DNA of 28,313 nucleotides, taken from a virus. Its lineage: Duplodnaviria; Heunggongvirae; Uroviricota; Caudoviricetes. The notes under the pieces were generated by a model. That model was not told where the DNA came from, made no database searches, and saw only the letters and a list, made by a program, of their open reading frames with translations. The DNA is taken from positions 1 to 28,313 of IMG/VR virus record IMGVR_UViG_2721755712_000003. One strand, given 5' to 3'. This document shows positions 1 through 22,864 of this stretch, one piece after another. The number at the start of each line of letters is the position of its first letter. The stretch's first letter is position 1. Both the position numbers and the translations under genes were made by a program.

Positions 1-996
1 TTAACGAACCAGCCAGACCAGCATCAGGATAATCGCGACTAACAGTATCCACAGCGCGGGACGCGTTGCCATATTTTGCAACGTGTCCATCATCGGTGGA
101 AAAGGATTAAGCAGCGGTTGCATAACACGCGGATCAATCCCTTTAACCCGCCGTTGATAAAGCTGATTAAGAATATCCTCGGCCTGGGCAGAAGAAAGCG
201 ATGATTGCGCAGAAAGACCATATTTTTGCTGGATATATGCCGATAACGCCGCCAGTTCACTGGCATCTAAAGGTTGTTTTAGCGTCATCTGTAGTGATTC
301 CAGCGTCGGCGTATTTTGCTGGCTTAGCGTCTGACGCGCCTGTAGCCAGGTCACCAGATGGTTAAACAGTTTCGCTGGAATTAACTCGCCATCTTTCACC
401 CCGGAAAGTTCCAGCATCGATTGCCAGATCTGTTTGCTGGGTTCCCCCGTTGCCGCCGCAAGTTTGGTCACCAGCTGTTTTAGCGCATTGTGCTCCGCCG
501 GTAATAAAGGACGGTCGGTCGCCTCGCGCTGCTGTGGTTGCGGAATAACCATCTTCCCTTCCTGCAACAGGGTGAGAATGGTTTTTAATTGCTCCGGTGA
601 GAGCTGATTCAGCGGCGTCTGACCAAAGTTATGACGGATATAATCCGTGACCGCCTGACGATTATTCCCCAGACGTAAATACTCCCCTAATTGCGCTAAA
701 AGCTGGCGGGCAGAATGGCTTTTTTGCGCGGCCAGCAGACGTTGCGCCAGATTATGCTCAGCGGCAGGGAAGTGACGCGAAAGCAGCGGTGAATCTCCCG
801 ACAGACCAATATCGTGCCTGATACCCGCCCACAGTTCTGCTCTTTGCTGTTGCGTCAGTGAGGTCACTTTCGTCATTAAGCTTTCCAGCGAAGTACGTTG
901 CTGACTGGATAAAGGCTGATTGCCCGTGCCAGACGGCAGATTATCTCCCTGACCTGGTGGTTGCCCAGGAGGAGGGCCGGAAATAGGTTGTATCAT
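1..996 (-). CDS. hypothetical Pro/Gln-rich protein with C-terminal transmembrane anchor (probable host flank gene)
   Basis: 331-aa ORF, ATG at 994-996 with AAGGA SD 9 nt upstream, stop at 1-3. N-terminus PPPGQPPGQ low complexity; C-terminal hydrophobic stretch ALWILLVAIILMLVWLV. Family not recognised. Confidence 0.5.
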   Translation of the reverse strand: MIQPISGPPPGQPPGQGDNLPSGTGNQPLSSQQRTSLESLMTKVTSLTQQQRAELWAGIRHDIGLSGDSPLLSRHFPAAEHNLAQRLLAAQKSHSARQLLAQLGEYLRLGNNRQAVTDYIRHNFGQTPLNQLSPEQLKTILTLLQEGKMVIPQPQQREATDRPLLPAEHNALKQLVTKLAAATGEPSKQIWQSMLELSGVKDGELIPAKLFNHLVTWLQARQTLSQQNTPTLESLQMTLKQPLDASELAALSAYIQQKYGLSAQSSLSSAQAEDILNQLYQRRVKGIDPRVMQPLLNPFPPMMDTLQNMATRPALWILLVAIILMLVWLVR

Positions 997-1195
997 TACG
1001 TATCCTTATACCTGAAATCTTCGCAAGTATGCCTGGCCGCGAGATTATGGCACACTTGTCCGGTTAACTCTCGTCTCATACAGGTAACACAAACGTGAAA
1101 ATCCTTGTTGATGAAAAAGATGTTGATTTAACTTTTTGATATAAAAGGATTTGTATCGGCGCATGTCCACGCAGTGACCACATTTTCGAGTTATA

Positions 1196-1233
1196 GATAA
1201 CACAAAGCCCGTTTTCACGGGCTTTGTGTTATC
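1196..1233. terminator. perfect 16-bp inverted repeat hairpin (GATAACACAAAGCCCG, loop TTTTCA); possible bidirectional terminator or island boundary
   Basis: Read directly: arm 1196-1211 is the exact reverse complement of 1218-1233. Sits between the 1..996 gene and the AT-rich islet. No clean U-run, so terminator function is inferred. Confidence 0.35.
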
Positions 1234-1245
1234 TGTGATTGTGGC

Positions 1246-2156
1246 TTAGCCGCATGATTTATACTGTTTCCAGTTACAGGCTTCTTGAAGCGGTTTTAGC
1301 GTGGTTGACAGGCCGTTTAAATTGAAAGTTGCACTTACAGGGCTTTCATTATAAGGGGTTATTTTTGCATACATTTTGTTTGAGTTGGCTAGTTTTCTGA
1401 TGAAGTTAATGTCATTGCCTTTATAAAAAACAGCCTTTGTATCTGTAGATACTAGCCAGTTTCGCTCAACTGCTTTCTGTTTATCAAGGCGATACAGCAT
1501 GCTGGTTTGTTCAAGGCCTAAATATACATCCCAATTAAGAAATACTTCGGTTTTCTTTTCTCGGCAAGCTATAAACAGAGTAGGGGTAACCGCTTCTCCA
1601 AATGGAGTTCTTATATAATCATCACTTTCTAACGATAAAATTACATTTTTCGAATCATCAATTGGCGATGTAGTAATGGATGTGTGCCATTTTCCTGTGT
1701 CTGTGGCTTTCTCTAATTTTGATTTAGATTGCGCAACTTTTTCCTGTGGAAATGGTTTATCGTAGCAGTTTATTCTAGTTTCTTTATCGTTTTCTGCTCG
1801 GCATTTAGATATCTCAGAAAGATTTGGTTGCTGAGCCTCTGTTGTTACTAGCTGTTTCGCTTTAGATTTTGAGCTTACAGGCGGAGTAAATGTTGGAGAA
1901 AAAAACGGTCATAACAAGATAAACGTCTGTCATCATCTTTCTCATCAGGGCATTGATCTCTGCTTTCGAATTTTTCAGCAACTGTCGTTCGAGTCGGTTG
2001 TATTGACTTATCATAACAAGAAAGTCTTTCTTTATTATTTTCTATTGCTCGGCACTGGAGTGATGACTTAAAGTTATTATGCTCAGTTGCTGCGTGAGCA
2101 GGTAGCACACTAATTGATATAAATGATGCACCTATAGAAATAATCATATTTTTCAT
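1246..2156 (-). pseudogene. frameshifted gene for a secreted Cys-repeat protein (signal peptide plus three C-x(6-9)-[RK]-[LI]-x-C-Y-D repeats)
   Basis: ORF 1875..2156 (signal peptide MKNMIISIGASFISISVLPAHA, repeats ...KERLSCYDK and ...RRLSCYDRFF) stops at 1875. Reading open in the +1 frame from about 1903 encodes a third repeat (RINCYDKPF) and continues into ORF 1246..1500. The frame switch lies at an A7/T7 homopolymer (1898-1906). AT-rich. Confidence 0.55.
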
Positions 2157-2160
2157 TTTG

Positions 2161-2493
2161 TTATCCCTTTGGTTTAGTAAGAAATACTAAATTTCCGATA
2201 ATGATATTGCAAATAACCCATAAGCCTCCAATAGCAATTAAACCTAAGCCCGTACCAATAACTGTACCGGCTTTTTCGGCATCGGATGTGGCGTTGTTTA
2301 TTATTTCACCCACCTCTCTTAGCCCAACACAAATCGTGTAGATTATAAAAATATTAAATAATATGAAAAAATACTTAATGAGTTCTCCAAAAAATGAACG
2401 TTTAAGTTTTTTCAGTTGTTTGCCACAAGCAGGGCAAGACAATACTGAATCGATCACCTCTTTCTGGCATTCAGGACATTTGATTAATGCCAT
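2161..2493 (-). CDS. zinc-ribbon membrane protein (CPECQ...CPACG followed by two hydrophobic helices)
   Basis: Start ATG 2491-2493 (MALIKCPECQ...) with GGAGG SD at 2502-2506. Stop is 5 bp before the start of the downstream secreted-protein gene, suggesting one operon. AT-rich. Confidence 0.6.
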   Translation of the reverse strand: MALIKCPECQKEVIDSVLSCPACGKQLKKLKRSFFGELIKYFFILFNIFIIYTICVGLREVGEIINNATSDAEKAGTVIGTGLGLIAIGGLWVICNIIIGNLVFLTKPKG

Positions 2494-2549
2494 ATAATCT
2501 GCCTCCTTTGGCTCTCTACTAGCTGACGTTTGTAACAAAACATTTTGAT

Positions 2550-2579
2550 TTTATCAGACTTTTTATTGATATGTGTCAA
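2550..2579 (-). promoter_or_regulatory. candidate sigma70 promoter for the zinc-ribbon operon (TTGACA, 18-nt spacer, GATAAA)
   Basis: Minus-strand TTGACA is the reverse complement of 2574-2579 and GATAAA of 2550-2555, about 50 nt upstream of the start codon. Pattern match only. Confidence 0.3.
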
Positions 2580-3001
2580 TTGATTAGCTGGTATAGAGTG
2601 AGACAGGATGCCTTATCGACCTTACTCTGGCAACTGATTGACGGGGGATTGCTCCCCCGTCGCGGTTTCCTTACTGCTTACACTGTAAGAACGCCGCAAA
2701 CTCCGCTCCCCAGAAACTCATCCGTATTTCACACAGCGAACCGTGCAGCATCCAGATGATGAGGATTGCCGTCACGCAGAACGTGATGGCCGTAAGCGAT
2801 TTTTGCGACATAGCACTTGCTCCTTTTCCGGAGAGGCGCTAACCTTTCACTTGTCAAGGTAATGCGGTTAGGGCCTCGGTTAAACAGATATGTTTTCCGG
2901 GGCCTTTCCACATCCGGCCTTCGGGTATTCCCTCCGACCATCAGCCGAAAGGCACCCGCACGTAATCTATCGCTTTTTTGTTACTCCGGCAATTCTGCCT
3001 G

Positions 3002-3262
3002 TTAATCCTGAGGTAAAGGCAAACTCATCTGATTGTTTCCCCTGTGTGAAGCTGGCAGCTCATGCCACGGGATACCTTCTGATGAGTGAACGCCGGAGGC
3101 GTGTTTCGATGTGAATTTATGGAAAGCTTCCAGTGTTGAGAAGCATACGCCGCATTCCAGATTGTTACACTGGTAATACTTTTGCCGCACGGTGTTTGAA
3201 TCATTTTCCGGACGACTGGTGCGGATACGGGCAGATGCGCCACAAAGCGGACAACGGAACAT
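3002..3262 (-). CDS. ogr: Ogr/Delta-type zinc-finger late-gene transcriptional activator
   Basis: 86 aa, MFRCPLCGASARIRTSR...YYQCNNLECGVCF with the C-x2-C...C-x4-C arrangement typical of P2 Ogr. GGGAGG SD before ATG at 3260-3262. Confidence 0.9.
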   Translation of the reverse strand: MFRCPLCGASARIRTSRPENDSNTVRQKYYQCNNLECGVCFSTLEAFHKFTSKHASGVHSSEGIPWHELPASHRGNNQMSLPLPQD

Positions 3263-4149
3263 AGCGACCTCCCTTAACGTGGTGCTGCCGCTATTCTAAG
3301 TTGCTCACTCTGTTTCCGCTATCCATTCCGGGATTTTTGCCTCAAGCTCAAGCTGCGTGGTAAAGCCGCTGTTATCAATGGTGTGCCCGGCTTTTGCAAT
3401 AATCCAGTCCTGATTATCAATCTCGCTTTTAAATCCTGTTACCGTGCCATGCATTTCGGGGTAGAGCTCTGCACGTCCACGCGCCAGCGTGATGGAGAAT
3501 GATGCGGCTCCGCGTTGTAGTTGCTGCCACTTTGCCGCCGCTGCGCGTCTTGCTGCCTGCTCGTTCTGATAAGTCTTGCGTAACACAAACACATTGCCTT
3601 CCGCGCCTTCCATATAATCACCTTCACGGCTGCTGCTTTTCTCCTTTTTGGGTTTTGGCGGTTTACGGCGTTTCACGCTGACTTTTTTCTTTTTCCCGTA
3701 ATTAAGATCAAGCCAGTAGGCGCGTACCCCCGTATACGCCTCGCGGTCAGCAATGCGGAACTGATGGCGATCGCCGCTGCTGCGTGTAATGGCGAACGAG
3801 GGCAACGGCTGGCCCTGTGCGTTCACGCCACCACCTGGCATGATGAATAACAGATTGCCGCTTTTTACCGTGGTGATTGCACCCAGCATTTCCGCCATGC
3901 GCGTAAGGAAGGACATGTCGCTTTCTTCGGTCTGGTCGGCGTGGTCGATTTCGATATCCATCAGCATTTCGCTGATTTGCGGTTTCAGACCATACCGATG
4001 AGCGATGGCGGATACCACACGCTCAACGGTCACATCATGCCAGGACACCTCACGTTTAACGTTAAATTCATCCCAAAAATCTGCGCTTCTGGCTGAAACA
4101 GTCAGCCTGTCCGGCGGTCCTTCGTGAGCGATTTCATCAACAATGTAAG

Positions 4150-5370
4150 TGTAGATTCAATTGGTCAACGCAACAGTTATGTGAAAACATGGGGTTGCGG
4201 AGGTTTTTTGAATGAGACGAACATTTACAGCAGAGGAAAAAGCCTCTGTTTTTGAACTATGGAAGAACGGAACAGGCTTCAGTGAAATAGCGAATATCCT
4301 GGGTTCAAAACCCGGAACGATCTTCACTATGTTAAGGGATACTGGCGGCATAAAACCCCATGAGCGTAAGCGGGCTGTAGCTCACCTGACACTGTCTGAG
4401 CGCGAGGAGATACGAGCTGGTTTGTCAGCCAAAATGAGCATTCGTGCGATAGCTACTGCGCTGAATCGCAGTCCTTCGACGATCTCACGTGAAGTTCAGC
4501 GTAATCGGGGCAGACGCTATTACAAAGCTGTTGATGCTAATAACCGAGCCAACAGAATGGCGAAAAGGCCAAAACCGTGCTTACTGGATCAAAATTTACC
4601 ATTGCGAAAGCTTGTTCTGGAAAAGCTGGAGATGAAATGGTCTCCAGAGCAAATATCAGGATGGTTAAGGCGAACAAAACCACGTCAAAAAACGCTGCGA
4701 ATATCACCTGAGACAATTTATAAAACGCTGTACTTTCGTAGCCGTGAAGCGCTACACCACCTGAATATACAGCATCTGCGACGGTCGCATAGCCTTCGCC
4801 ATGGCAGGCGTCATACCCGCAAAGGCGAAAGAGGTACGATTAACATAGTGAACGGAACACCAATTCACGAACGTTCCCGAAATATCGATAACAGACGCTC
4901 TCTGGGGCATTGGGAGGGCGATTTAGTCTCAGGTACAAAAAACTCTCATATAGCCACACTTGTAGACCGAAAATCACGTTATACGATCATCCTTAGACTC
5001 AGGGGCAAAGATTCTGTCTCAGTAAATCAGGCTCTTACCGACAAATTCCTGAGTTTACCGTCAGAACTCAGAAAATCACTGACATGGGACAGAGGAATGG
5101 AACTGGCCAGACATCTAGAATTTACTGTCAGCACCGGCGTTAAAGTTTACTTCTGCGATCCTCAGAGTCCTTGGCAGCGGGGAACAAATGAGAACACAAA
5201 TGGGCTAATTCGGCAGTACTTTCCTAAAAAGACATGTCTTGCCCAATATACTCAACATGAACTAGATCTGGTTGCTGCTCAGCTAAACAACAGACCGAGA
5301 AAGACACTGAAGTTCAAAACACCGAAAGAGATAATTGAAAGGAGTGTTGCATTGACAGATTGAATCTACA
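4150..5370 (+). mobile_element. IS30 insertion sequence, complete (1221 bp), flanked by 2-bp target duplication AG
   Basis: Left end TGTAGATTCAATTGGTCAACGCAAC at 4150; right end is its imperfect inverted copy (22 of 25 matches) ending at 5370. AG at 4148-4149 and 5371-5372. Length equals canonical IS30. Confidence 0.95.
4212..5363 (+). CDS. insI: IS30 transposase
   Basis: 383-aa ORF MRRTFTAEEKASVFELWKNGTGFSEIANILG... recognised as the E. coli IS30 transposase (HTH N-terminus, DDE core). Confidence 0.95.
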   Translation: MRRTFTAEEKASVFELWKNGTGFSEIANILGSKPGTIFTMLRDTGGIKPHERKRAVAHLTLSEREEIRAGLSAKMSIRAIATALNRSPSTISREVQRNRGRRYYKAVDANNRANRMAKRPKPCLLDQNLPLRKLVLEKLEMKWSPEQISGWLRRTKPRQKTLRISPETIYKTLYFRSREALHHLNIQHLRRSHSLRHGRRHTRKGERGTINIVNGTPIHERSRNIDNRRSLGHWEGDLVSGTKNSHIATLVDRKSRYTIILRLRGKDSVSVNQALTDKFLSLPSELRKSLTWDRGMELARHLEFTVSTGVKVYFCDPQSPWQRGTNENTNGLIRQYFPKKTCLAQYTQHELDLVAAQLNNRPRKTLKFKTPKEIIERSVALTD

Positions 5371-5794
5371 AGTGCCTTTTTCTGTCAGCGGTTCTCCCTT
5401 CCAGCCAATGAGAACCGTCAGGCGCGCGCCCCGTGGCGGTAGCTGCAACTGACCATCCGCATCATCCAGCGTGATGGTGAGCTGGTCCGCCTCAAATCCC
5501 CGGTTGTCGGTCAGTGACAGGCTCATCAGGCGCTCTGCCACGCCTGACAGCGTTTTACCCTCCGCGAGAATATCAAAATCCGGCATTTTTACGGGGTCTG
5601 TGCCCTGACTGAGCAATTGCATGGTGGTGTCGGTCATCTGCTCCCTCCCTGTGCGGCATGGTCGCATGTGCGTGCGGAGGGGGTTACTGCTTTTTGTTGT
5701 CGCCGTGGCGAGAGAACGGCGCAGGGGTGAGATTACGCGCGTGGTGGGTGATGATTGTTGCCGAATCATTTAACGGATACAAGGGGCTGAAGCT

Positions 5795-6979
5795 ATGAGT
5801 GAAACTCGTTTTCATGGTGCCCGTGTTACGGAAAATACCGACCTGGTAACAGCGATTAACGATGTTGATTCCAGCGTTATCGGTATCGTGGCAACGGCGG
5901 ATGATGCGGACGCGAAGCTGTTCCCGCTGAACAAGCCCACACTGCTGACCCGCGTCAATGACGTGCTGGGAAAATGCGGGACAACGGGGACGCTTTATCG
6001 TGCGCTTAAGGCCATCGCAGACCAGGTGAGTACAAAGGTGATCGTCGTTCGCGTGGCTGAACACAAAGAAGAAGACGGAAAAACGCAGGATCAACTGGTT
6101 ATCGGTGGTTCTGAATCTGACGGCAGCTATACGGGGATGTATGCGCTGCTTGTTGCAGAGCAGGATGAAAGCATCGGATACCGTCCGCGTATTCTGGCCG
6201 CGCCGGAGCTGGACACGGAGGCGGTAACAAAATCCCTGTGCGTGATTGCGGGTAAACTGCGCGCGTTTGTGTATGCCTCATGTCACGGCTGTAACACGAT
6301 GGCTGAGGCGATTACCTACCGCCAGAAATTCAACGAACGTGAGGTGATGCTCTTATGGCCGGACTTCATCGCCTACAACCCGAAAAGTGGCAAAAACGAA
6401 ACGTTCCCCGCGCCTGCCTATGCGTGCGGCCTTCGTGCGTACATTGACCATGAGCAGGGTTGGCACAAATCGCTGTCCAACGTTCCGGTTAAAAATGTGC
6501 TGGGGATGTCCAGGCATGTGTTCTGGTCGTTGCAGGCCGAAGACAGTGATGCCAACAGCCTCAACAACAAAGAAATCACGACCATTATTCGTCGCAACGG
6601 GTTCCGCTTCTGGGGCAACCGCACACCGGAAACGAACGCCTACATCTTTGAGGTGTATACCCGAACCGCACAGGTGCTGGCTGATTCAATTGCGGAAGCG
6701 CAGTTTGAAACCATCGATAGTCCACTGACGCCTGCGAACGTGAAGGATGTTATCAGTGCCATCAGGGCAAAACTGGATTCACTGGTGACTGCCGGGAAAC
6801 TGATTGGGGCGTCGTGCTGGTATGACGTGGTGGATAACAGCACCACGAATTTACGTCAGGGGCGTGTGCGTATTCGCTACAAATATACGCCCGTTCCTCC
6901 GCTGGAAGACATGGAGCTTTACCAGTCGTTTACTGATGAATTCTTTGGTCCCGCATTTGCGGTGCTGGGAGGTGCCTGA
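5795..6979 (+). CDS. FI: contractile tail sheath protein
   Basis: 394 aa, AAGGGG SD; conserved blocks FPLNKP, WPDF, GFRFWGNRT, YKYTPVPPLE matching P2 gpFI. On the opposite strand to the other late genes. Confidence 0.95.
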   Translation: MSETRFHGARVTENTDLVTAINDVDSSVIGIVATADDADAKLFPLNKPTLLTRVNDVLGKCGTTGTLYRALKAIADQVSTKVIVVRVAEHKEEDGKTQDQLVIGGSESDGSYTGMYALLVAEQDESIGYRPRILAAPELDTEAVTKSLCVIAGKLRAFVYASCHGCNTMAEAITYRQKFNEREVMLLWPDFIAYNPKSGKNETFPAPAYACGLRAYIDHEQGWHKSLSNVPVKNVLGMSRHVFWSLQAEDSDANSLNNKEITTIIRRNGFRFWGNRTPETNAYIFEVYTRTAQVLADSIAEAQFETIDSPLTPANVKDVISAIRAKLDSLVTAGKLIGASCWYDVVDNSTTNLRQGRVRIRYKYTPVPPLEDMELYQSFTDEFFGPAFAVLGGA

Positions 6980-7491
6980 TGGCTGTACCAAAACATCTTC
7001 GCTTTTTTACGCTGTTTGTGGATGGTGAAAACGAAGTGGGTAAGGTGACGTCCGTCACCCTGCCTAAACTGACGCGCAAAACCGACAGCTACCGGGGTGG
7101 TGGCATGATGGGTGCGGTAAGTATTGATCTCGGTCTGGACGACTCCGCGCTTGATGCGAGCTTTGTCATGGGGGGCGCAGTTCGTGAGCTGTTCCTTAAG
7201 TATGGCGGCACGATTGACGGCACGCTACTGCGTTTTGCGGGTGAATACTACACCGATGCAGAAAGCGACCTGTATGAAGTCGAAATGCGCGGACGCGTGA
7301 CGGAAATTGATATGGGGGAAGCCAAACAGGGCGAAGCCACATCACACACTTACGCCATTAAAAACACCTACTACAAGCTGAGTGTTAACGATCGTCCGTT
7401 GTGGGAGATTGACCTGCTGAACTTCATTTACCGGAAGGACGGCAAGGACATTGTGCCCGATCGCATCCGTTCCGCGCTTGGGCTTGGCTGA
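6979..7491 (+). CDS. FII: tail tube protein
   Basis: 170 aa; ATG overlaps the FI stop (TGATG), the usual FI-FII position and size. Confidence 0.9.
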   Translation: MAVPKHLRFFTLFVDGENEVGKVTSVTLPKLTRKTDSYRGGGMMGAVSIDLGLDDSALDASFVMGGAVRELFLKYGGTIDGTLLRFAGEYYTDAESDLYEVEMRGRVTEIDMGEAKQGEATSHTYAIKNTYYKLSVNDRPLWEIDLLNFIYRKDGKDIVPDRIRSALGLG

Positions 7492-7545
7492 TAAGTAATA
7501 TGCAGGCGGCGCAGTGCGTCGCCTCTGACTGAAAGGAGTTTCCTG

Positions 7546-7911
7546 ATGAAAGAGACGAAAAACATCGATACCGAAAACACGGTAGTTGCTGACACTGTGA
7601 AAGAAACCAGTGAGCGTGGCGTAAAACTTACCCAACCAATTGAGCGAGGCGGCGAAAAAATCACGTATGTGGAGATCACCGGGGCTATTGAGCAGGCTGG
7701 ATCTCTGCGAGATTTGTCGCTGTCTGATGTGCTGAATCTGAAAGCGGAATCCATGTTTACGCTGCTGTCACGAGTGACATCACCGCGACTGGATGAAGTG
7801 ACGATCAAAAAAATGGCATCCCGTGACTTTATTCAGTTATGTGTGGTTGCCGTAAATTTTTTGAGCGGTGCGGACTCTGGCGGGAAGAACGAACAGGCGA
7901 CGGAAGCCTGA
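7546..7911 (+). CDS. E: tail assembly chaperone gpE (zero-frame product)
   Basis: 121 aa, AAGGAG SD 7 nt upstream; lies between tube and tape-measure genes and contains the slippery heptamer near its 3' end. Confidence 0.8.
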   Translation: MKETKNIDTENTVVADTVKETSERGVKLTQPIERGGEKITYVEITGAIEQAGSLRDLSLSDVLNLKAESMFTLLSRVTSPRLDEVTIKKMASRDFIQLCVVAVNFLSGADSGGKNEQATEA

Positions 7912-8075
7912 TCACGGTTGTGTGCTTTGAGCACATAGAAGACTTTGTGGCAGATATTGCCGTTATTTTTAACTGGTCGCCCGCCGAAATCTTCATGATG
8001 ACGCCCGGCGAAGTGGTTAGCTGGCGTGAGCGGGCGGCACTTCGCAGCGGGAATGCAGACAATGAAGACTCTTGA
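7546..8075 (+). CDS. gpE+E' chaperone fusion made by programmed -1 frameshift at 7857-7863
   Basis: Zero-frame codons AAT TTT TTG (N F L). A -1 slip on T TTT TTG reads TTT GAG CGG..., which is exactly ORF 7839..8075 (FFERCGLW...), ending with TGA at 8073-8075. Confidence 0.75.
7857..7863 (+). promoter_or_regulatory. T-TTT-TTG slippery heptamer for the E/E' -1 frameshift
   Basis: Read directly; frame relationship verified by coordinate arithmetic (E in frame 1, E' in frame 0). Confidence 0.75.
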
Positions 8076-10869
8076 TATCCGGGTCGCTTTCAGCGCCGTT
8101 GACAGGCTGACCCAGCCTGCCGAAAACGCCCGCCGCCTGATGGGGCAGTTTGGTGACTCCATCCAGCGAACGCAGGGGGCGATCAAAAATCTCGAGCGTC
8201 AGGCGCGTTCATTTGAGCGCGCCCGCGACGCTGTCAGTAAAGCGGATGCGGGTATCGTGAAAGCACGACGCCAGCTTAACGCCCTTAATCAGTTACAACG
8301 CACGGGTACAGTGCTCAGCGAAAAACAACAAAAGCTGATGCAGCAGTTAAGCACCCGGCTTGAACGCCTGAATGAATCGCGCACGCGGGAAATTCAGAAA
8401 ATGCGGGAGCTTGGCGGAGAGCTGAAACGCCACGGCATTTCCCTGACAGGCAGCGATAACACCATCCAGCAGGCCATCAGACGCACCGAACAGTACAACA
8501 ATCAGCTTGAACGCGAACGGCAGGCGCTTGCGCGTGTAACGCGGGCGCGTGAGCGGTATTCGCGCGCGCAGGAAACAGCGGGAAAACTGAAAACAGGTGG
8601 TGCACTGGCAATTGGTGCGGCAGCGGCGGGCGGCTATGCTGCCGGGCGTTTTTTGCAGCCTGCGATCGGGTTCGGGAAAGAGATGTCCCGCGTTCAGGCA
8701 CTGACGCGAATCGACCAGAACAGCCCGCAGTTTAAGGCGCTGCGTGAGCAGGCGTTAAAACTTGGCTCTGAAACGCAGTTCACCGCAGGCGATGCCGCCA
8801 GTGGGCAGGCATTTCTGGCAATGGCTGGCTTCACACCGCAGGCCATTCAGGCTGCGCTTCCCGGCGTGCTGAGCATGGCAACGGCTGGCGGTATGGACCT
8901 TGGCGAGACGGCAGATATTGGCTCAAATATCCTGACGCAGTTCGGCCTCTCCGCTGACCAGATGGACCGGGTCGGTGACACGCTTACAGCAGTGTTTACC
9001 CGTACTAACACTGACCTTCGCGCACTGGGCGAAACCATGAAATATGCAGGTCCGGTGGCGGGTAAGCTGGGAATATCGCTGGAGCAGGCCGCAGCGATGG
9101 CGGGCGTGCTGGCGAATATGGGTATCAGAGGGAGTGATGCCGGGACGGCAATGCGTGCCAGCCTGGCTCGTCTGGCATCACCGCCAAAGGCGGCAGCAGA
9201 AGCGCTGAAAGAGCTGGGTGTGTCCGTCTCTGATGCGAACGGCAAAATGCGCCCGATGGAAGATGTGCTGGCCGACCTTTATAAAGCCACCCGTAAATAC
9301 GGGGAAGTTGACCGGGTATCGTTCTTTAAGGACATTGCCGGGGAAGAGGCTTTCACGTCGTTTATGGCTCTCGTTGATGCGGCGGGTGACGGCTCCCTGC
9401 CCAAACTGAGAAAAGAACTTGAGGGCGCACGCGGTGAGGCTGAACGCACGGCAAAGGTTATGGCCAATAACCTTGATGGCGACCTGAAATCACTCGGCAG
9501 TGCATGGGAAGGGCTGCGTATCCGCATTGCAGATCTGATTGATGGTCCGCTGCGTTCTGTCACGCAGTGGCTCACGCGGGTGGTCTCAAAGGTGACGGCG
9601 CTGGCACAGGCCCATCCGGTACTGACGCGCCAGTTACTGATAGCAGGCGGTGCGCTGCTGGCAATGACTGCAACGGTTGGCTCGTTGTCGCTGGTTATTG
9701 GAGTGCTTCACGGGAAGCTGGCCACGTTGCGTCTTGGTTTTTCTCTCCTGACCGGATCAATGAATGCTGTCAGGCTCCTGCCAGCACTATGGGGAATGGT
9801 GACGGGTTCCGTTTCGTTACTGGGGGGCGCTATCGGGGCGCTGTTCAGCCCGGTCGGATTGATTGCTGCTGCGTTTGTGGCTGCGGCAGTTCTCATCTGG
9901 AAATACTGGGAACCCATCAAGGCGTTTTATGCCGGGGTGTTCAGCGGGATTATGGAGCGGCTGGCCCCGTTACGCGAAACCTTTGAACGGTTTGGTCCTG
10001 TTTTTGACGCAATCGGAAGCGGGATAAGTCAGGTGTTTAACTGGTTTAAATCGTTGCTGTCACCGATGGAGTCCAGCAAGGAAACGCTGGATAAATGTAC
10101 CAGTGCTGGCGAGATATTCGGTAACGTTCTTGGCGGTGCGTTACAGCTTGTTCTGACGCCCGCAAAAATGTTGCTGGATACGCTGGCGTGGATACTTGAA
10201 AAACTCGGTGTGCTTCCGGATGAAGCGGAAAGGGCGAGAAAGAAAATCGAAGACGCACAGCGTGCGGCCATTCTTCAGGACAAGGTTGCTCTGTTTCAGG
10301 GAGACATTGCGAAAATCAATCCGCCGAAGTCTGCGGAAAATGGCAATGGCACCGGAGGTGATAAACCCAAAGACAATAAACCGCTCACAGACAGCAATAC
10401 CGGTACGCTACGCAGACTCAGCAAAATTGCTGATAACACAGGTAAGCTGGTTGATGAGACGAAAAAACGTATTGGCCCCGGCGATATTGTCTTTAAGAAC
10501 CTGCCCCGCGCACTTGCCGTTCGTGGGGAGTGGCAGGAGCGGAAGATTGTGCAGGTCAGTAAGCCTGCCCCCGCAATTAATATCACACCCGTGGTCCCGG
10601 CTCCGCTGCCTCCGGCGCTGGTCCCTGTTGTTGCGGCCAGCTCCCGCCCGGTGGCGGAGGCCATACGATCTCCAGTGGCATCAGTTCCTGTAACTTCCCG
10701 TAACCGGGAGCCTGTTGCCTCCGGATTTGGTGGTGAAATTCATGTTCATCTGCATAACGTTGTTACGCAGAATCCCCGCGAACTGGCGAAACTGGTCGGT
10801 GAAATGGTCAGGGCAGAAATGGAACGGCGCGCCCGTGCCGGGCGTGGCAGTTTTTACGATAAAGATTGA
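8053..10869 (+). CDS. T: tail tape measure protein
   Basis: About 938 aa, coiled-coil N-terminus, central hydrophobic block, Ala/Gly-rich segments, Pro-rich C-terminus. Start taken at ATG 8053 (or 8062), overlapping the E' end. Confidence 0.9.
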   Translation: MQTMKTLDIRVAFSAVDRLTQPAENARRLMGQFGDSIQRTQGAIKNLERQARSFERARDAVSKADAGIVKARRQLNALNQLQRTGTVLSEKQQKLMQQLSTRLERLNESRTREIQKMRELGGELKRHGISLTGSDNTIQQAIRRTEQYNNQLERERQALARVTRARERYSRAQETAGKLKTGGALAIGAAAAGGYAAGRFLQPAIGFGKEMSRVQALTRIDQNSPQFKALREQALKLGSETQFTAGDAASGQAFLAMAGFTPQAIQAALPGVLSMATAGGMDLGETADIGSNILTQFGLSADQMDRVGDTLTAVFTRTNTDLRALGETMKYAGPVAGKLGISLEQAAAMAGVLANMGIRGSDAGTAMRASLARLASPPKAAAEALKELGVSVSDANGKMRPMEDVLADLYKATRKYGEVDRVSFFKDIAGEEAFTSFMALVDAAGDGSLPKLRKELEGARGEAERTAKVMANNLDGDLKSLGSAWEGLRIRIADLIDGPLRSVTQWLTRVVSKVTALAQAHPVLTRQLLIAGGALLAMTATVGSLSLVIGVLHGKLATLRLGFSLLTGSMNAVRLLPALWGMVTGSVSLLGGAIGALFSPVGLIAAAFVAAAVLIWKYWEPIKAFYAGVFSGIMERLAPLRETFERFGPVFDAIGSGISQVFNWFKSLLSPMESSKETLDKCTSAGEIFGNVLGGALQLVLTPAKMLLDTLAWILEKLGVLPDEAERARKKIEDAQRAAILQDKVALFQGDIAKINPPKSAENGNGTGGDKPKDNKPLTDSNTGTLRRLSKIADNTGKLVDETKKRIGPGDIVFKNLPRALAVRGEWQERKIVQVSKPAPAINITPVVPAPLPPALVPVVAASSRPVAEAIRSPVASVPVTSRNREPVASGFGGEIHVHLHNVVTQNPRELAKLVGEMVRAEMERRARAGRGSFYDKD

Positions 10870-11370: not shown

Positions 11371-11376
11371 TTTAAT

Positions 11377-11410
11377 GCTGGCCACTCATACCTGGTAATA
11401 AGTGGCCAGT
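11377..11410 (+). terminator. hairpin downstream of U (9-bp stem CTGGCCACT/AGTGGCCAG, 14-nt loop)
   Basis: Read directly; no U-run follows, so terminator function is uncertain. Lies at the proposed right inversion breakpoint. Confidence 0.3.
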
Positions 11411-11532
11411 CTTAACACTCACCATTTGATTGCACCCGCGTTAACGATTTGTTACTGGGTATCAGACATGCTGGATAGCCAGTAGAAACATACCATTAAA
11501 ATTATTACAATAATTGGTCACATGATTATCTT

Positions 11533-12020
11533 ATGCTGAATAATAGAGATATGAATATTAATGAACTTAAAGACTGTATTCACTATGAAGTAATCGGTAG
11601 CGAGCGTCCTTTCTCCTGGCGAAAGGCAATTGTTCGCGCAATAAAACATAGAAGACTTCGTTATTTATTTTGGTGGCGCATAGCCAAATACCTTTTTGAT
11701 AAAGGCGGATACTGCCGGAAGATTGCGGGGAAAATAGAACGTTTCATTCTTGATAAATATAATGTAACAGTCCCTTTAACTGTAAATATAGGGAAAGGCT
11801 TTGATATTTCTTATCTCAACAGTGTTGTTATCGGTCACAAAGTAACAATCGGTGAAAATTGTTCAATAAAACCGGGGGTAACTATTGGGCTACGTGGTGA
11901 TTTTAATGATATGGATATTGTTATAGGACATAATGTGACCATTGGTTGTAATGCCACCATTCTTGGTGGCAAAGTGCGTATAGGAAACAATGTCACAATA
12001 GGTGCTCATGCATTGGTAAC
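11533..12020 (+). pseudogene. left-handed beta-helix (hexapeptide-repeat) sugar O-acetyltransferase-like gene, WcaB/CysE-like, probably 3'-truncated
   Basis: AT-rich ORF with tandem [LIV]-G-x-x-x-x-[IV] hexapeptide repeats (VVIGHKVTIGENCSIKPGVTIG..., IVIGHNVTIG..., VRIGNNVTIGAHALV). Base composition switches at about 12010-12020, beyond which the ORF is antisense of the fibre gene. Confidence 0.6.
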
Positions 12021-12465
12021 CACCACCTTCAAGAACTTCAAGGAGTCCCTGACCATAACTTCCTTCTTCCGGATAGTTGCGGTCAAATGAAGCGATTGAG
12101 CCACTACTGTTTCGCCATAAACCAAGATGCTCTGCGCCTCCGAGCGTGTTCAGGTCAATGGTTGTGCTCAGGGGGCGTGTTGCAGACTGAACCTGACGCC
12201 AGTAACTCCACGGACCGTCTGAACCATTCCATGTGCCAGAAAGGTTGCGCATATAAACATTGCCTGTTCTGGTGGTGTAACGCTGCATTCCTGCAAAATT
12301 ACCGCCATTGAATACCTCCAGTACACCGACTGCACCGTCTTCAGGGAAATTTTTAGCAGCCGTCGCGTTAGTGGATGTAGCTTTAGACCAGACGCCAAGA
12401 TAAGCCTTAACGGGACCAAATGTATTCAAGTCAGCATCAAGCGGCATTTCGCCATTGTTTTTCAT
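12021..12465 (-). pseudogene. tail fibre C-terminal receptor-binding fragment (N-terminal shaft missing, C-terminus cut)
   Basis: Two tandem copies of a fibre-tip-like motif (DLNTFGPV...GVLEVFNGGNFAGMQRYTT...W..W and DLNTLGG...GLLEVLEGGG); the second copy breaks off at about 12021. Starts 5 bp after the J stop with no gpI gene between. Confidence 0.6.
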
Positions 12466-12470
12466 AAACG

Positions 12471-13316
12471 TCAGGCTGGTAACGCCAACATTGTCCAGAA
12501 AAGCGCCCTTATCTCCACGCGTTGCACACCGTGCACATGCAGTGCGGCAGCAATGGCGGACAACGCCACGTCCTGACCGATAAGCCCCTGCTCAGCCAGC
12601 CACTTCCTGAACGACGATTCAGCCGCAGCCAGAATAGGTTCGGATTCCGGGCCGGGATAAAAGTACAGTTTTGCATTCAGCCGCCATGTCACGATTCTGG
12701 CGCTCTGTACGGTCAGGCGGTCGGCCACCGGGCGGGTATCCTCTGCATTCAGAACGGCACGAACGGTATTAAGCAACGCCTCCGTTGCTGTGCCGTCGCC
12801 TTCAGTGGACAGGATGGAAACCGTCACACAGGCCGGAGACGGGCTGATGGCCCGCGCATCACGCACCAGACCGCTGGCGCTGCGTGCAAAATACTCGTAT
12901 GCACCTGACGGGCCAGCAACACTCAGGCCGTCGTACGCCCGCTGCGCCCGCAGTCTCAGCGAGGTGTCGCTCTCCATCACCGCGTCGGTGGTATCCGTTG
13001 CCGGAGTGATAACCAGGCGCTTTGTGTTCATATTGCCCGCGAGGTTGTCCAGGTCTGTCCCGGCGCTGTGGCTTAACATGCAGGCGCGTGCACCCTCATT
13101 GACCCGCTGGCGTAACAGCATTTCACGAAACGCTGTTGTCTGGGCGATAACGTTCAGGGGTTCCGATTCCAGCTCCAGCGCAGCGGAAACGGCTTCACGC
13201 TGTTCGGCGGGATAAGCTGCAATCATCATGGCCTTTGTGTCAGCCAGAATTGCTTCAAAGTCAGGCTCCGCGATGATGGCGGGTTCTGGTAACTGGGAAA
13301 GGTCAACGGCGGGCAT
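12471..13316 (-). CDS. J: baseplate assembly protein gpJ
   Basis: 281 aa, follows W in canonical order; slightly shorter than the roughly 300 aa expected, so the C-terminus may be affected by the adjacent deletion. Confidence 0.8.
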   Translation of the reverse strand: MPAVDLSQLPEPAIIAEPDFEAILADTKAMMIAAYPAEQREAVSAALELESEPLNVIAQTTAFREMLLRQRVNEGARACMLSHSAGTDLDNLAGNMNTKRLVITPATDTTDAVMESDTSLRLRAQRAYDGLSVAGPSGAYEYFARSASGLVRDARAISPSPACVTVSILSTEGDGTATEALLNTVRAVLNAEDTRPVADRLTVQSARIVTWRLNAKLYFYPGPESEPILAAAESSFRKWLAEQGLIGQDVALSAIAAALHVHGVQRVEIRALFWTMLALPA

Positions 13317-19243: not shown

Positions 19244-19288
19244 GTAGCAGCCCAGCTTGTTACGGGCATTAATTACTCAGGGGGAGCA

Positions 19289-20542
19289 ATGATTCAGGAC
19301 GCTTTTGTGCGCCAGCGTGCGCGGCAACTTTACTGGCAGGGTTATCCGCCCGCAGAAATATCACGTCTGATGGGAATAAACCCGAACACGATTTATGCGT
19401 GGAAAAAACGCGACCAGTGGGATGAAACGCCCCCCGTGCAGCGTGTCACGCAGTCCATCGATGCGCGCCTCATCCAGCTTACTGAAAAACAGAATAAAAC
19501 AGGCGGTGACTTTAAGGAAATAGACCTGCTGACCCGGCAGCTTAAAAAGCTGCATGATGGCCAGCCGGATGTGATGGCCGCAGGAAAGAAAGGCCGGGCG
19601 AAAAAACTTAAAAATCATTTCACGCCGGAACAGATTGCCGCACTGCGGGAAAAAATCATCAGCAGGCTGGAGTGGCATCAGCGGGGCTGGTTTGACTCCC
19701 TGACACTTTGCAGGGAAGCCGGGATACGTAACAGGATGATCCTGAAATCCCGACAGATTGGGGCGACCTGGTATTTTGCACAGGAAGCTCTGCTGATGGC
19801 GCTGCGTGACGATGTGGCGCAACCTTACCAGCGTAACCAGATTTTTTTGTCTGCGTCGCGTCGTCAGGCGTTCCAGTTTAAAAGCATTATTCAGAAGGTC
19901 GCGGCTGAAGTTGATGTGGAGCTGAAAGGGGGCGATAAAATCATCCTCTCCAACGGCGCAGAGCTGCATTTTCTCGGCACTTCTGCTGCGTCGGCACAGT
20001 CCTATACGGGCAATTTTTATTTTGATGAATTTTTCTGGGTCAGTCGCTTTGCTGAACTGCGCAAGGTGGCTGGCGCTATGGCAACCCTCAGCGGACTGCG
20101 GCGCACCTACTTCTCCACGCCATCCACCGAAACGCACGAGGCGTACGCCTACTGGAACGGCGACCGCTGGAACGAGAAAAAGGCCTCGCATAAACGCCAG
20201 CGTTTTTCTGTGGACTGGAAAACGCTGCATAACGGGCTTATCTGCCCTGACCGGACTTGGCGGCAAATTGTCACGCTGGAAGATGTGGTTAATCACGGCT
20301 GGAAACACACCGATATCGACGAAATTCGTGATGAAAACACCGAAGACGAGTTCCTCAATCTCTATATGTGTGAGTTTGTCCGCGAAGGGGAATCGGCATT
20401 TAACCTGAATATCCTGATTGGCTGCGGTGTTGACGGATACGACGACTGGAAAGACTGGAAACCTTTTGCTCCCCGCCCGATGGGGAATCGTCCGGTATGG
20501 ATTGGGTATGACGCAAACGGCAGCAGTGGCAACGGCGACACC
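19289..20542 (+). pseudogene. P: terminase large (ATPase) subunit gpP, 3'-truncated at about aa 418
   Basis: GGGGGAG SD before ATG 19289; terminase-like sequence up to ...GYDANGSSGNGDT, after which the ORF is the antisense of gene A. Confidence 0.85.
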
Positions 20543-20544
20543 GT

Positions 20545-21822
20545 GCGGATGCCATACCAGCGCAGGCCGTCGCGGTTCAGTTTCTTGCGGACCGCCGCAA
20601 AAAACGAGTTAACCAGGTAATCGCTGGAGTCGCGCATAGTGGCCCCGTTCCATTTGGGATTCGGATGACCGTTCTCCGTTGTTGCGTGGTATTTTGACGG
20701 GCAGGTGACAGTCAGAAACACCGCTCTGTCGCCACGGGCTTCGGCCAGAAGTTCCAGCCCCTTCATGGTGGCCATCATTTCTGCCTTACGGTGAACCGGG
20801 TTACTTACTCCCGCGTAATACACTGTCTCAAGATCAATCGTGAACCCGTCTTCGTTTTCCAGCATGAAACTTTTCAGGAAATCGCGTGTTTTCTCGCGCT
20901 GTGCGCGAAACTCGCTTAACGCATCCTGGCTCAGATAGGGCGATGTTTTTCTGGAAACCAGACAGGCGGCGCGGAGTTGTTCTTCTCTCCACTCGCAACG
21001 TAACAGCCACAGTTTGCGTTTCCACCATTCCGCACAGGTCAGGCGAAGGATTGCGCCCGGCAGCAGCTCCGTGTCTGGTTCGTTCCTCCGGCCTTTGTCT
21101 GTTGTCAGTGCGTCATAATGCGGAGGCATGGCGTGCAGGTGTAACGCCATGCGGGCCAGCATCTGATACGCCTTCAGCGTTACATCCATGGTCAGCTCGC
21201 CATCAGTCGCACCAAAGCCATCGCAGAGTTTTTCGAAGGTGCTGCTGAACATCGCCGCCGTCATGGTGGCCAGCGTCTGTATCTGGTGTTTGTTGAGCTG
21301 CGGCAGGTAAAGCAAATCGTCCAGGCGTTCGCGTCCGGCAAGGGAGCGATAACCCGGTGTCAGCCAGTGTCCGTCAGTGCGATCCAGACGTTCGAATATT
21401 TTGCGCAGGGTTCCGCGTGCATAGCGTTCTGCCTGCCAGCTCTTTTTGCCTTTCCGGCGATCGACTTCCTGTTTTTTGCGCAGGAAGGAGAGGTGGCGAA
21501 TAAGCGGATCGCGCAGATAGGACGGCAGCAGGCGCAGCGAGGCCATGGCTTCATCCACCGCGCCGCGTGCCTGTCTTCTGGCGTCTCCTGCCAGCGTGAT
21601 GGTTTTGTCCTGTTTTTCCTGTGCGTCCAGGCTTTTATTAATCAGGTTGCCCAGTGGCGTGGCAGAGAACGCCGCATCAGCCTTTTCCTGTCGGCGCTCG
21701 TTCTCTGCCTGGTAGGCATCCAGCCAGGAGGAAAGCGCGGATTCAGGTGCGGGGATCCCCGTTCCTTCACGCCCCACTGCGTGGCGCGGTTGTTGCCAGT
21801 CCCTGATGTACTCTGTCGTCAT
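20545..21822 (-). pseudogene. A: replication initiation endonuclease gpA, 3'-truncated before the HUH active-site region
   Basis: N-terminal about 425 aa is gpA-like (…FLTVTCPSKYH…RWYGIR) and stops resembling gpA where the Val-Glu-Pro-His-His-Asp-Gly block would follow; beyond that the ORF is antisense of P. Confidence 0.85.
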
Positions 21823-22497: not shown

Positions 22498-22674
22498 GGT
22501 GTGGCCTCTTTGGTTGTAAGTTTTGAAAACTCACCATCCAGAGCTGCGAAACTGTGGGTGGCGAGACGTACGGGGTTCGCAGTACCGGCAACCAAAGAAC
22601 CCGGCCCGACCGAAGTCGGCCCCGTACGCCCCGCCATAATTCTGACGCGAAAAAAACGTGGCAATACAGTACGC

Positions 22675-22702
22675 ACAAAAAAACCGCTGGCGCGGTTGTG
22701 CG
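22675..22702 (-). terminator. intrinsic terminator (hairpin followed by T7 on the minus strand)
   Basis: Minus-strand RNA reads CGCACAACCGCGCCAGCGGUUUUUUUGUGCG; the T-run is the complement of 22675-22681. Lies downstream of the SPFH gene. Confidence 0.55.
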
Positions 22703-22864
22703 CTTTGGTTGTCAGCAGGCTGCGAAACCCGGCACCCGTTTTATGAGGTGCAGCGAAAATGTAACCTGACTGATTGCGGCATGGCAAGCGGTTTTTTTGT
22801 GAGAACGGCATACTAAAAAATCCTGATACTGCTCCGGCCAGCGGTTTGCACTGGCCGGGTGTCA

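Follow-up and report, generated by a model that had tools for sequence, protein, structure and literature searches.

The known hot spots of the insertion sequence IS30 form a short list, lambda LHS and P1. A 24-bp hot-spot consensus ('GOHS') is said to have been given by Olasz et al. 1998 (Mol Microbiol 28:691). The target specificity of IS30 is dual, that is, the element enters near-palindromic hot spots such as lambda LHS and also its own inverted repeats (PMC9333248). At LHS the insertion takes place at about position 33290 of lambda (coordinates from PMC9333248, citing Olasz et al. 1998). Transposition follows a copy-out-paste-in pathway via a circular intermediate with an IR-IR junction, the target strands are attacked 2 bp apart and a 2-bp target duplication is characteristic of the element (PMC9333248).

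We analyzed a stretch of 28,313 nucleotides (the window, by which we mean the whole of this stretch) in which an IS30 copy splits gene D of a prophage. The prophage is collinear with phage P88 (Xuanwuvirus, Peduoviridae), with which it shares six blocks of 92–97 % identity in blastn, and judged from its sequence it is a degraded, P88-like and P2-related member of Xuanwuvirus. In P88 the genes hok, ogr and D are found in the same order and are likewise divergent from FI-FII-E-T-U. The restored D protein of the window begins with the same residues as the product of P88 gene D (gp51), and the DNA is 96.5–97 % identical. P88 is a functional phage, whereas the window prophage is without about 12 kb of the P88 functions and has its gene D split by IS30. 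Taken together, we regard it as highly probable that a canonical IS30 has inserted into a site of the hot-spot type in gene D of a P88-like prophage which was already defective.

The IS30 copy and the split gene D

The copy in the window is structurally the same as the IS30 prototype (IS30 family; the insI genes of K-12) in every respect. It is 1221 bp long, has imperfect inverted repeats of 26 bp, encodes a single transposase with an N-terminal HTH and a DDE domain, is flanked by a 2-bp duplication and lies in a near-palindromic target of the hot-spot type, as measured with a matrix derived from other IS30 flanks. When the left terminus (TGTAGATTCAATTGGTCAACGCAACA) is aligned to the right one in reverse complement (TGTAGATTCAATCTGTCAATGCAACA), 23 of the 26 positions agree. 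A single uninterrupted reading frame fills the element, and the encoded transposase gives Pfam matches to HTH_38 (82.6 bits, cut-off 27) and to the integrase core rve (53.1 bits, cut-off 32.6). When 5426 complete E. coli genomes were searched with megablast, the window element was identical at 1221 of 1221 positions to copies annotated as 'IS30-like element IS30 family transposase'. Matches with a coverage of at least 80 % are present in 3110 of these 5426 genomes, and 4164 records have a match at an identity of at least 99 %. The element is already known; it is a standard IS30 with ordinary biology. It deviates from the prototype by the less common A at IS30 position 1194 (window position 5343), which stands in place of G and changes a glycine to a serine seven residues from the C-terminus of the transposase.

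The preliminary description had already recognized a full-length IS30 of 1221 bp with imperfect terminal inverted repeats and an intact transposase, and on all these points we agree with it. Its span of 4148–5372 does include the element, but IS30 proper extends from 4150 to 5370 and the remainder is made up of the two AG copies (Table 1).

Table 1. Features of the interrupted D locus (window coordinates) and lesions of the prophage (P88 coordinates)
Feature	Position	Strand	Remarks
ogr/delta-type late-gene activator	3002..3262	-	Ogr_Delta, 52.4 bits; directly downstream of D, same strand
Gene D 3' fragment, codons 90-369 + stop	3305..4147	-	belongs to the restored 369-aa ORF; 843 nt = 280 codons + stop
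IS30 target, left half	4134..4149		minus strand CT T ACA TTGTTGATGA; 6.7 bits against the half-site matrix
Target-site duplication, left copy (AG)	4148..4149		the same AG flanks IS30 here in six other genomes
Complete IS30	4150..5370	+	1221 bp; full-length identity (100 %) with annotated IS30 copies
IS30 left inverted repeat (IRL), 26 bp	4150..4175	+	23/26 complementary to the right end
IS30 transposase gene, intact, 383 aa	4212..5363	+	ORF; Pfam HTH_38 and rve
IS30 right inverted repeat (IRR), 26 bp	5345..5370	-	contains the transposase stop codon
Target-site duplication, right copy (AG)	5371..5372		direct reading
IS30 target, right half	5371..5386		AG T GCC TTTTTCTGTC; 6.1 bits; fits NN-N-GC(C/G/T)-TTnTT
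Gene D 5' fragment (tail/baseplate-hub), codons 1-89	5371..5637	-	267 nt
Prophage lesion 1	P88 27595-21947		invertase, tail fibres and assembly genes, gpI, part of gpJ; replaced by about 1.1 kb with a serine acetyltransferase gene
Prophage lesion 2	P88 15190-14170		head protease/scaffold; missing
Prophage lesion 3	P88 12894-7240		portal, ParM/partition genes and portions of the large terminase and replication endonuclease; missing

Gene D starts with an ATG at 5637 on the minus strand, which is preceded by the ribosome-binding site GGGAGGGAG. Deletion of positions 4150–5372 in silico yields one open reading frame of 369 amino acids, the product of which matches Phage_GPD (PF05954) over residues 92–349 with 59.3 bits (cut-off 30.1) and is a homologue of the baseplate hub protein gpD of phage P2. 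Both the AG duplication outside the two ends of IS30 (4148–4149 and 5371–5372) and the restoration of the D frame upon removal of IS30 and one AG had been proposed before and are borne out. In the preliminary description the break falls between codons 88 and 89. Counted from the start codon at 5637, however, IS30 is preceded by 267 nt or 89 codons, and the duplicated dinucleotide (CT on the strand of D) forms bases 2–3 of codon 89 (ACT, Thr); thus the break lies between codons 89 and 90. The same 267-nt fragment is annotated by PGAP as a D pseudogene in other occupied genomes. With IS30 in place, the 5' fragment is read for another 18 codons into IRR, giving a product of 107 amino acids. On inspection of the flank by eye we found no good −10 element at the right spacing for a hybrid promoter that would start in IRR and point outward into the region between D and FI.

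The surroundings of the split gene are those of the gpD family, a cluster of tail genes of the P2 type with ogr beside D. According to the annotation, flk, TagO-like genes, a hok/gef toxin gene and ogr lead up to D, ogr lying downstream of it, and the genes for sheath, tube, E/E', tape measure and U are adjacent and divergent on the other side. Further on come the genes for the baseplate, for lysis and for the head, then the early region, cox, C and the integrase.

Age of the insertion and state of the prophage

If IS30 and one AG are taken out, the window is identical to positions 4489214–4516303 of E. coli F5656C1 (NZ_CP024260.1) without a single mismatch over 27,090 bp. Eight complete genomes (F5656C1, E143, E66, E70, E272, E1624, LR882973 and FDAARGOS_1077) match the 22.9 kb to the right of IS30 at 100 %, and all of them have the empty site. 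In two further empty-site genomes, 99-3165 and 2011EL-1370-2 (O6:H16), the flanks of D likewise match at 100 %. None of the 5,426 complete E. coli genomes combines this insertion with the flanks of the window; the best occupied locus is 99.3 % identical. The A1194 allele was found in no other IS30 copy within gene D among the collections searched, the loci from IMG/VR and metagenomes included. A recent event had been supposed in the preliminary description; since the restored window is base-identical to its empty-site relatives and A1194 is unshared at the D site, the recency is now more strongly shown. By this comparison with its relatives, the insertion of the window is very recent and private.

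The insertion met a prophage which had already lost much of its genome. Against P88, three internal deletions or replacements are apparent from the blastn blocks, and these are common to the empty-site relatives (Table 1, lesions 1–3). Truncated genes matching the lesions are flagged by PGAP. As the portal, the tail fibres and the scaffold are already gone, and the terminase and replication genes are incomplete, loss of D should be without further effect on phage production. Breaking the gene would then cost nothing more, and no part that still worked as a phage would have been lost.

Recurrence of the insertion and choice of the target

The window is not the only place where IS30 is found in gene D. 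The same junctions with the same AG duplication are present in 90-9280, in H10407, in SMN013SH2 and its relatives, in SF O157 493/89 and in 7_33_46A. MEI003 has IS30 at this dinucleotide too, but in the opposite orientation; the orientation is skewed, with one of the seven fully resolved loci inverted. The IS30 at the D site of SMN013SH2 and its relatives was itself later entered by an IS3-family element. The occupied prophages reside at at least three chromosomal sites, namely the tRNA Gly-Cys-Leu cluster by pgsA, flk and ihfA; the occupied locus of 7_33_46A abuts hxsA. A 600-bp query spanning the empty site detected D in 1,373 records, in 1,113 of which it is contiguous. About 260 of the 1373 D-bearing records (about 19 %) are split near query position 300, and these are mostly O157:H7. 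Typically, the O157:H7 locus has kept the right junction intact, and the left end of IS30, the 3' part of D, ogr and hok are deleted. This remnant (JEONG-1266, SF O157 493/89) shares with the window the dinucleotide of D and the orientation of the element. It differs in its flank haplotype, in having G1194 and in its location at the tRNA-Leu cluster, and is a separate event. In a widespread family of prophages, one insertion sequence has put the same tail gene out of action time and again.

How many events are represented by these loci? The flanks of the occupied loci differ by 14–41 nt per 1,600 and by 15–34 nt per 840 (about 1–4 %) in an ungapped comparison, which leaves out H10407, where the 5' fragment of D has an indel of 6 nt, and the deleted left flank of JEONG. 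The IS30 copies at the D site differ from the window copy by 1–6 nt per 1,221. The left flanks of H10407 and 90-9280 are identical, and SF O157 493/89 and JEONG-1266 differ by 1 nt per 1600 in the flank; by their flanks, each of these two pairs clearly appears to share a single event. Overall, orientation, alleles, haplotypes and chromosomal sites indicate that probably about five or six independent insertions have taken place. For the insertions other than that of the window, independence could be overstated if defective prophages were mobilized by helper phages or if gene conversion homogenized the IS copies.

At the extreme, a single ancient insertion into D could have been inherited by, or spread by recombination or helper transfer to, all occupied prophages, and no hot spot would then be needed. 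This would account for the identical position and duplication at all occupied loci and for the common orientation of six of the seven resolved loci; some sharing by descent is seen (H10407 with 90-9280, SF O157 493/89 with JEONG-1266), and defective prophages can indeed be packaged and moved with helper-phage functions (PMC2669165). For the window, however, the explanation is refuted, as its flanks are those of the empty-site genomes and differ by 1–2 % from every occupied D locus compared; nor does any other D-site copy in the collections searched have A1194. Descent also cannot produce the inverted element of MEI003 at the very same dinucleotide. In addition, the IS30 copies diverge about ten-fold less than their flanks, and the site ranks among the best when scored with a target matrix derived independently of it. 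We therefore consider a single insertion to be very improbable.

This matrix was obtained in the following way. IS30 ends were collected from IMG/VR, from species-representative genomes and from metagenomes; the species-representative genomes alone gave 19 IS30 ends, and the metagenomes were added in order to have sufficient sites. The collection comprises 88 distinct flank half-sites and 23 reconstructed targets of simple insertions. The flanks have a half-site in common, duplication(2)-N-GC(C/G/T)-TTnTT-nA, and the palindrome is roughly AAAAAGGC-N-NN-N-GCCTTTTT. The right half of the D site (AG T GCC TTTTTC) is a close fit to this half-site. Read on the opposite strand, the left half is CT T ACA TTGTTGATG; it agrees with the outer part of the half-site and has the outer TTGATG in common with the commonest IS30 flank.

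We then scored positions with a log-odds matrix of 56 clustered half-sites from which the two halves of the D site had been excluded. The natural flanks behind this matrix number a few dozen, and many are interrelated or come from rearranged junctions. By its scores the D site ranks third of the 27,060 positions of the restored window. As an independent control, position 33290 of lambda, the published insertion point in LHS, ranks third of 48,472 positions with the same matrix. Thus even a small empirical IS30 target matrix recovers the lambda site. Target fit was scored in this way against the empirical matrix and lambda LHS. As long as 33 or more half-sites were used for training, variation of matrix length (12–18) and clustering left the D site at rank 1–4 in the window and at rank 2–7 in complete P88, and LHS was at rank 2–11 under the same settings. 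The harshest clustering reduces the training set to 14–22 half-sites, and the ranks then drop to 29–99 for the D site in the window and to 153–170 for LHS.

The D site therefore resembles lambda LHS, a near-palindromic phage target outside the IRs which attracts IS30: both rank among the top handful of positions and both contain the half-site NN-N-GCC-(A)CTTTT/TTTTT. They differ in their sequence otherwise and in the gene concerned, which is the tail gene D here and belongs to the kil/cIII region in the case of LHS, and the D site is documented from natural occurrences. A first alignment of LHS to the D target, made AG to AG, had given 18 of 34 matches. We regard these matches as coincidental, for the half-sites align LHS in the opposite sense, with the insertion at 33290/33291.

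By target scores and natural occurrences, the D site is well supported as a natural hot spot of IS30. As it fits the hot-spot preference of the element, the same dinucleotide would have been hit independently in other P88-like prophages. Our searches of the literature found no prior description of IS30 in D of P2/P88-like prophages as a hot spot. Measured against what is documented about IS30, the D site is a further natural instance of a known property of the element and a modest addition.

The exact 24-nt target sequence is also present in the functional phage P88. A wider reading would be that the dinucleotide in codon 89 of D is an undescribed hot spot in functional P88-like phages as well, with IS30 as a recurrent 'grounding' agent of the family whose hits are perhaps selected by the host. 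In this wide form we think it unlikely, although host selection may favor hits at the D site beyond the target preference.

Still less do we believe that selection is the main cause of the recurrence, whatever the target preference. In that case hosts whose P88-like prophage is without D, and makes neither tails nor infectious particles, would be favored. About 19 % of the D-bearing records are interrupted at this site, and the 'grounding' of prophages by IS elements is a recognized theme (PMC6379469). Most of this 19 %, however, is the clonal O157:H7 lineage, and selection for loss of D predicts lesions scattered over the gene rather than at one dinucleotide and by one type of IS. From P2 biology one would expect that loss of D leaves excision, replication and lysis in place, so that the benefit for the host is unclear. 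The window prophage was moreover already dead and had nothing left to select. The target preference is sufficient to explain the recurrence, selection for the loss of D is not needed, and as the principal cause we rate selection as highly doubtful. It is extremely unlikely that the assembler misplaced a repeated IS30 into D: assemblies do often go wrong at IS elements, and the source genome is represented by one window, but both junctions are base-exact with the expected 2-bp duplication, which a misjoin would not create, and the same structure is found in independently closed genomes.

Origin of the element and course of the insertion

We prefer, then, a canonical insertion of IS30 into a preferred target, and the relatives of the window point to the probable source of the element. 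Among the matches listed, the ten IS30 copies with 100 % identity are all plasmid-borne, and the majority of these plasmids belong to known ETEC strains. The copy at positions 45960–47180 of the F5656C1 plasmid NZ_CP024262.1 is base-identical to that of the window, A1194 included, and its transposase is annotated as WP_001254933.1. The A1194 allele of the window is thus shared by the LT plasmid of F5656C1 and by the other plasmids with 100 % matches. On the F5656C1 plasmid the element is flanked by IS3-family/IS600 fragments and lies about 1.2 kb from eltAB, the genes of the heat-labile toxin. A query containing the IS gave a single match on the F5656C1 chromosome, the empty D locus; F5656C1 thus has no chromosomal IS30. 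From these relatives we infer that the donor was likely the plasmid IS30 by IS600 and eltAB or an identical sibling. The intact transposase frame with HTH_38 and rve, together with the identical copy on the LT plasmid of the relatives, suggests that the window copy is possibly still active.

We suggest that the insertion proceeded in the following steps. The host would have belonged to the F5656C1 / 99-3165 / 2011EL-1370-2 group of enterotoxigenic E. coli, in which the prophage adjoins flk. The IS30 located beside IS600 and eltAB on the plasmid of this strain would have given rise to the circular intermediate with the IR-IR junction. The site in D would have been chosen because its sequence matches the near-palindromic hot-spot preference of IS30 with the half-site NN-N-GCC-TTTTT. 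A staggered cut 2 bp apart followed by gap repair could then have produced the AG duplication. D was split after codon 89 and thereby inactivated, and phage production would presumably not be affected any further.

The insertion would then be a marker of a very recent movement of IS30 from plasmid to chromosome in an LT-producing ETEC lineage, and it could serve to mark the strain. As a separate observation, an annotation artefact arising from IS30 insertions at the D site was seen in all three empty-site genomes examined.

Gene models of D in genomes with an empty site

The disruption of D by IS30 appears to have consequences for genomes that do not carry it. In F5656C1, where the D open reading frame is intact and codes for 369 aa (locus L009, 3305-4158), the PGAP annotation gives only a 266-aa CDS of the "VgrG/Pvc8 family" and a partial pseudogene called "hypothetical protein"; the first ~103 codons are left without annotation. 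The same miscall is found in strain 99-3165 (L007); three genomes with an uninterrupted D were looked at, and all show it. The model behind the partial pseudogene is a 49-aa open reading frame which runs across the D/IS30 junction of the occupied genomes (e.g. WP_240217757.1 in L001), and a variant of this junction frame is found in H10407 (WP_244422776.1). The PGAP call of intact D in the empty-site genomes is an annotation artefact, and it looks as if gene models from IS30-disrupted copies of D are being propagated to other genomes.

Further IS30 copies and their flanks

The D-gene IS30 copies themselves differ between strains. In H10407 the element carries a T-to-G exchange at IS30 position 12, within the left inverted repeat, and five further differences, and the 5′ fragment of D is 6 nt longer (273 vs 267 nt). 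SF O157 493/89 has retained the complete IS30 and the 3′ part of D; here a YecA-family gene is inserted between D and the late-gene activator gene ogr. In typical O157:H7 (JEONG-1266, L010, ~5700-7001) the left end of the element is absent, and the 3′ part of D, ogr and hok are gone too. This loss is an IS-adjacent deletion.

In the public data the most frequent IS30 flanks are ...GATATATTAAAAAAAGCA[AC]AGCGTATTTTGCACAGGA and ...GAAATATTAAAAAAGGCT[AC]CGCGCTCTTGATGTCAGA. These commonest flanks were found on the F5656C1 plasmid (L197, 2481-3741) and at numerous loci from viruses and metagenomes (L013, L015, L062 and L101 among them), and transposase genes of the IS600/IS3 family contain at least part of the commonest flank sequence. 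Several IS30 copies have no duplication, their flanks being reverse-complementary or mismatched, as would be expected if IS30 copies had recombined with one another or the DNA between them had been inverted. The IS30 beside the heat-labile toxin genes eltAB on the F5656C1 plasmid has GT/AC flanks and likewise no duplication.

Other features of the prophage

Compared with phage P88, the prophage has three internal deletions or replacements (see table). All three are also present in the empty-site relatives and are therefore older than the IS30 insertion. The third has left a piece of the terminase gene butted against a piece of a replication gene, the two lying on opposite strands.

RNA matches, toxin gene and lesions relative to P88 in the window
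Feature	Position	Strand	Remarks
C4 antisense RNA	22554-22641	-	Rfam 87.1 bits, above gathering score
isrK Hfq-binding RNA	22677-22751	-	Rfam 65.9 bits, above gathering score
hok/gef-family toxin gene	2671-2811	-	prophage end, beside ogr
Lesion 1	11376-12508		~1.1 kb with serine acetyltransferase gene in place of tail fibre, invertase, gpI and part of gpJ
Lesion 2	junction 19266-19270		head protease/scaffold gone
Lesion 3	junction 20539-20547		part of terminase, portal, ParM and part of replication endonuclease gone

The C4 and isrK matches adjoin each other within the prophage's early region. The counterpart of the toxin gene in P88 is MokW-like; no sok-type RNA scored above the Rfam threshold.

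With IS30 and one AG removed from the window, only two positions outscore the D site on the IS30 target matrix, namely 10432 and 1435 (11655 and 1435 in the window); one falls within the region of the serine acetyltransferase gene, the other within the TagO-like gene.
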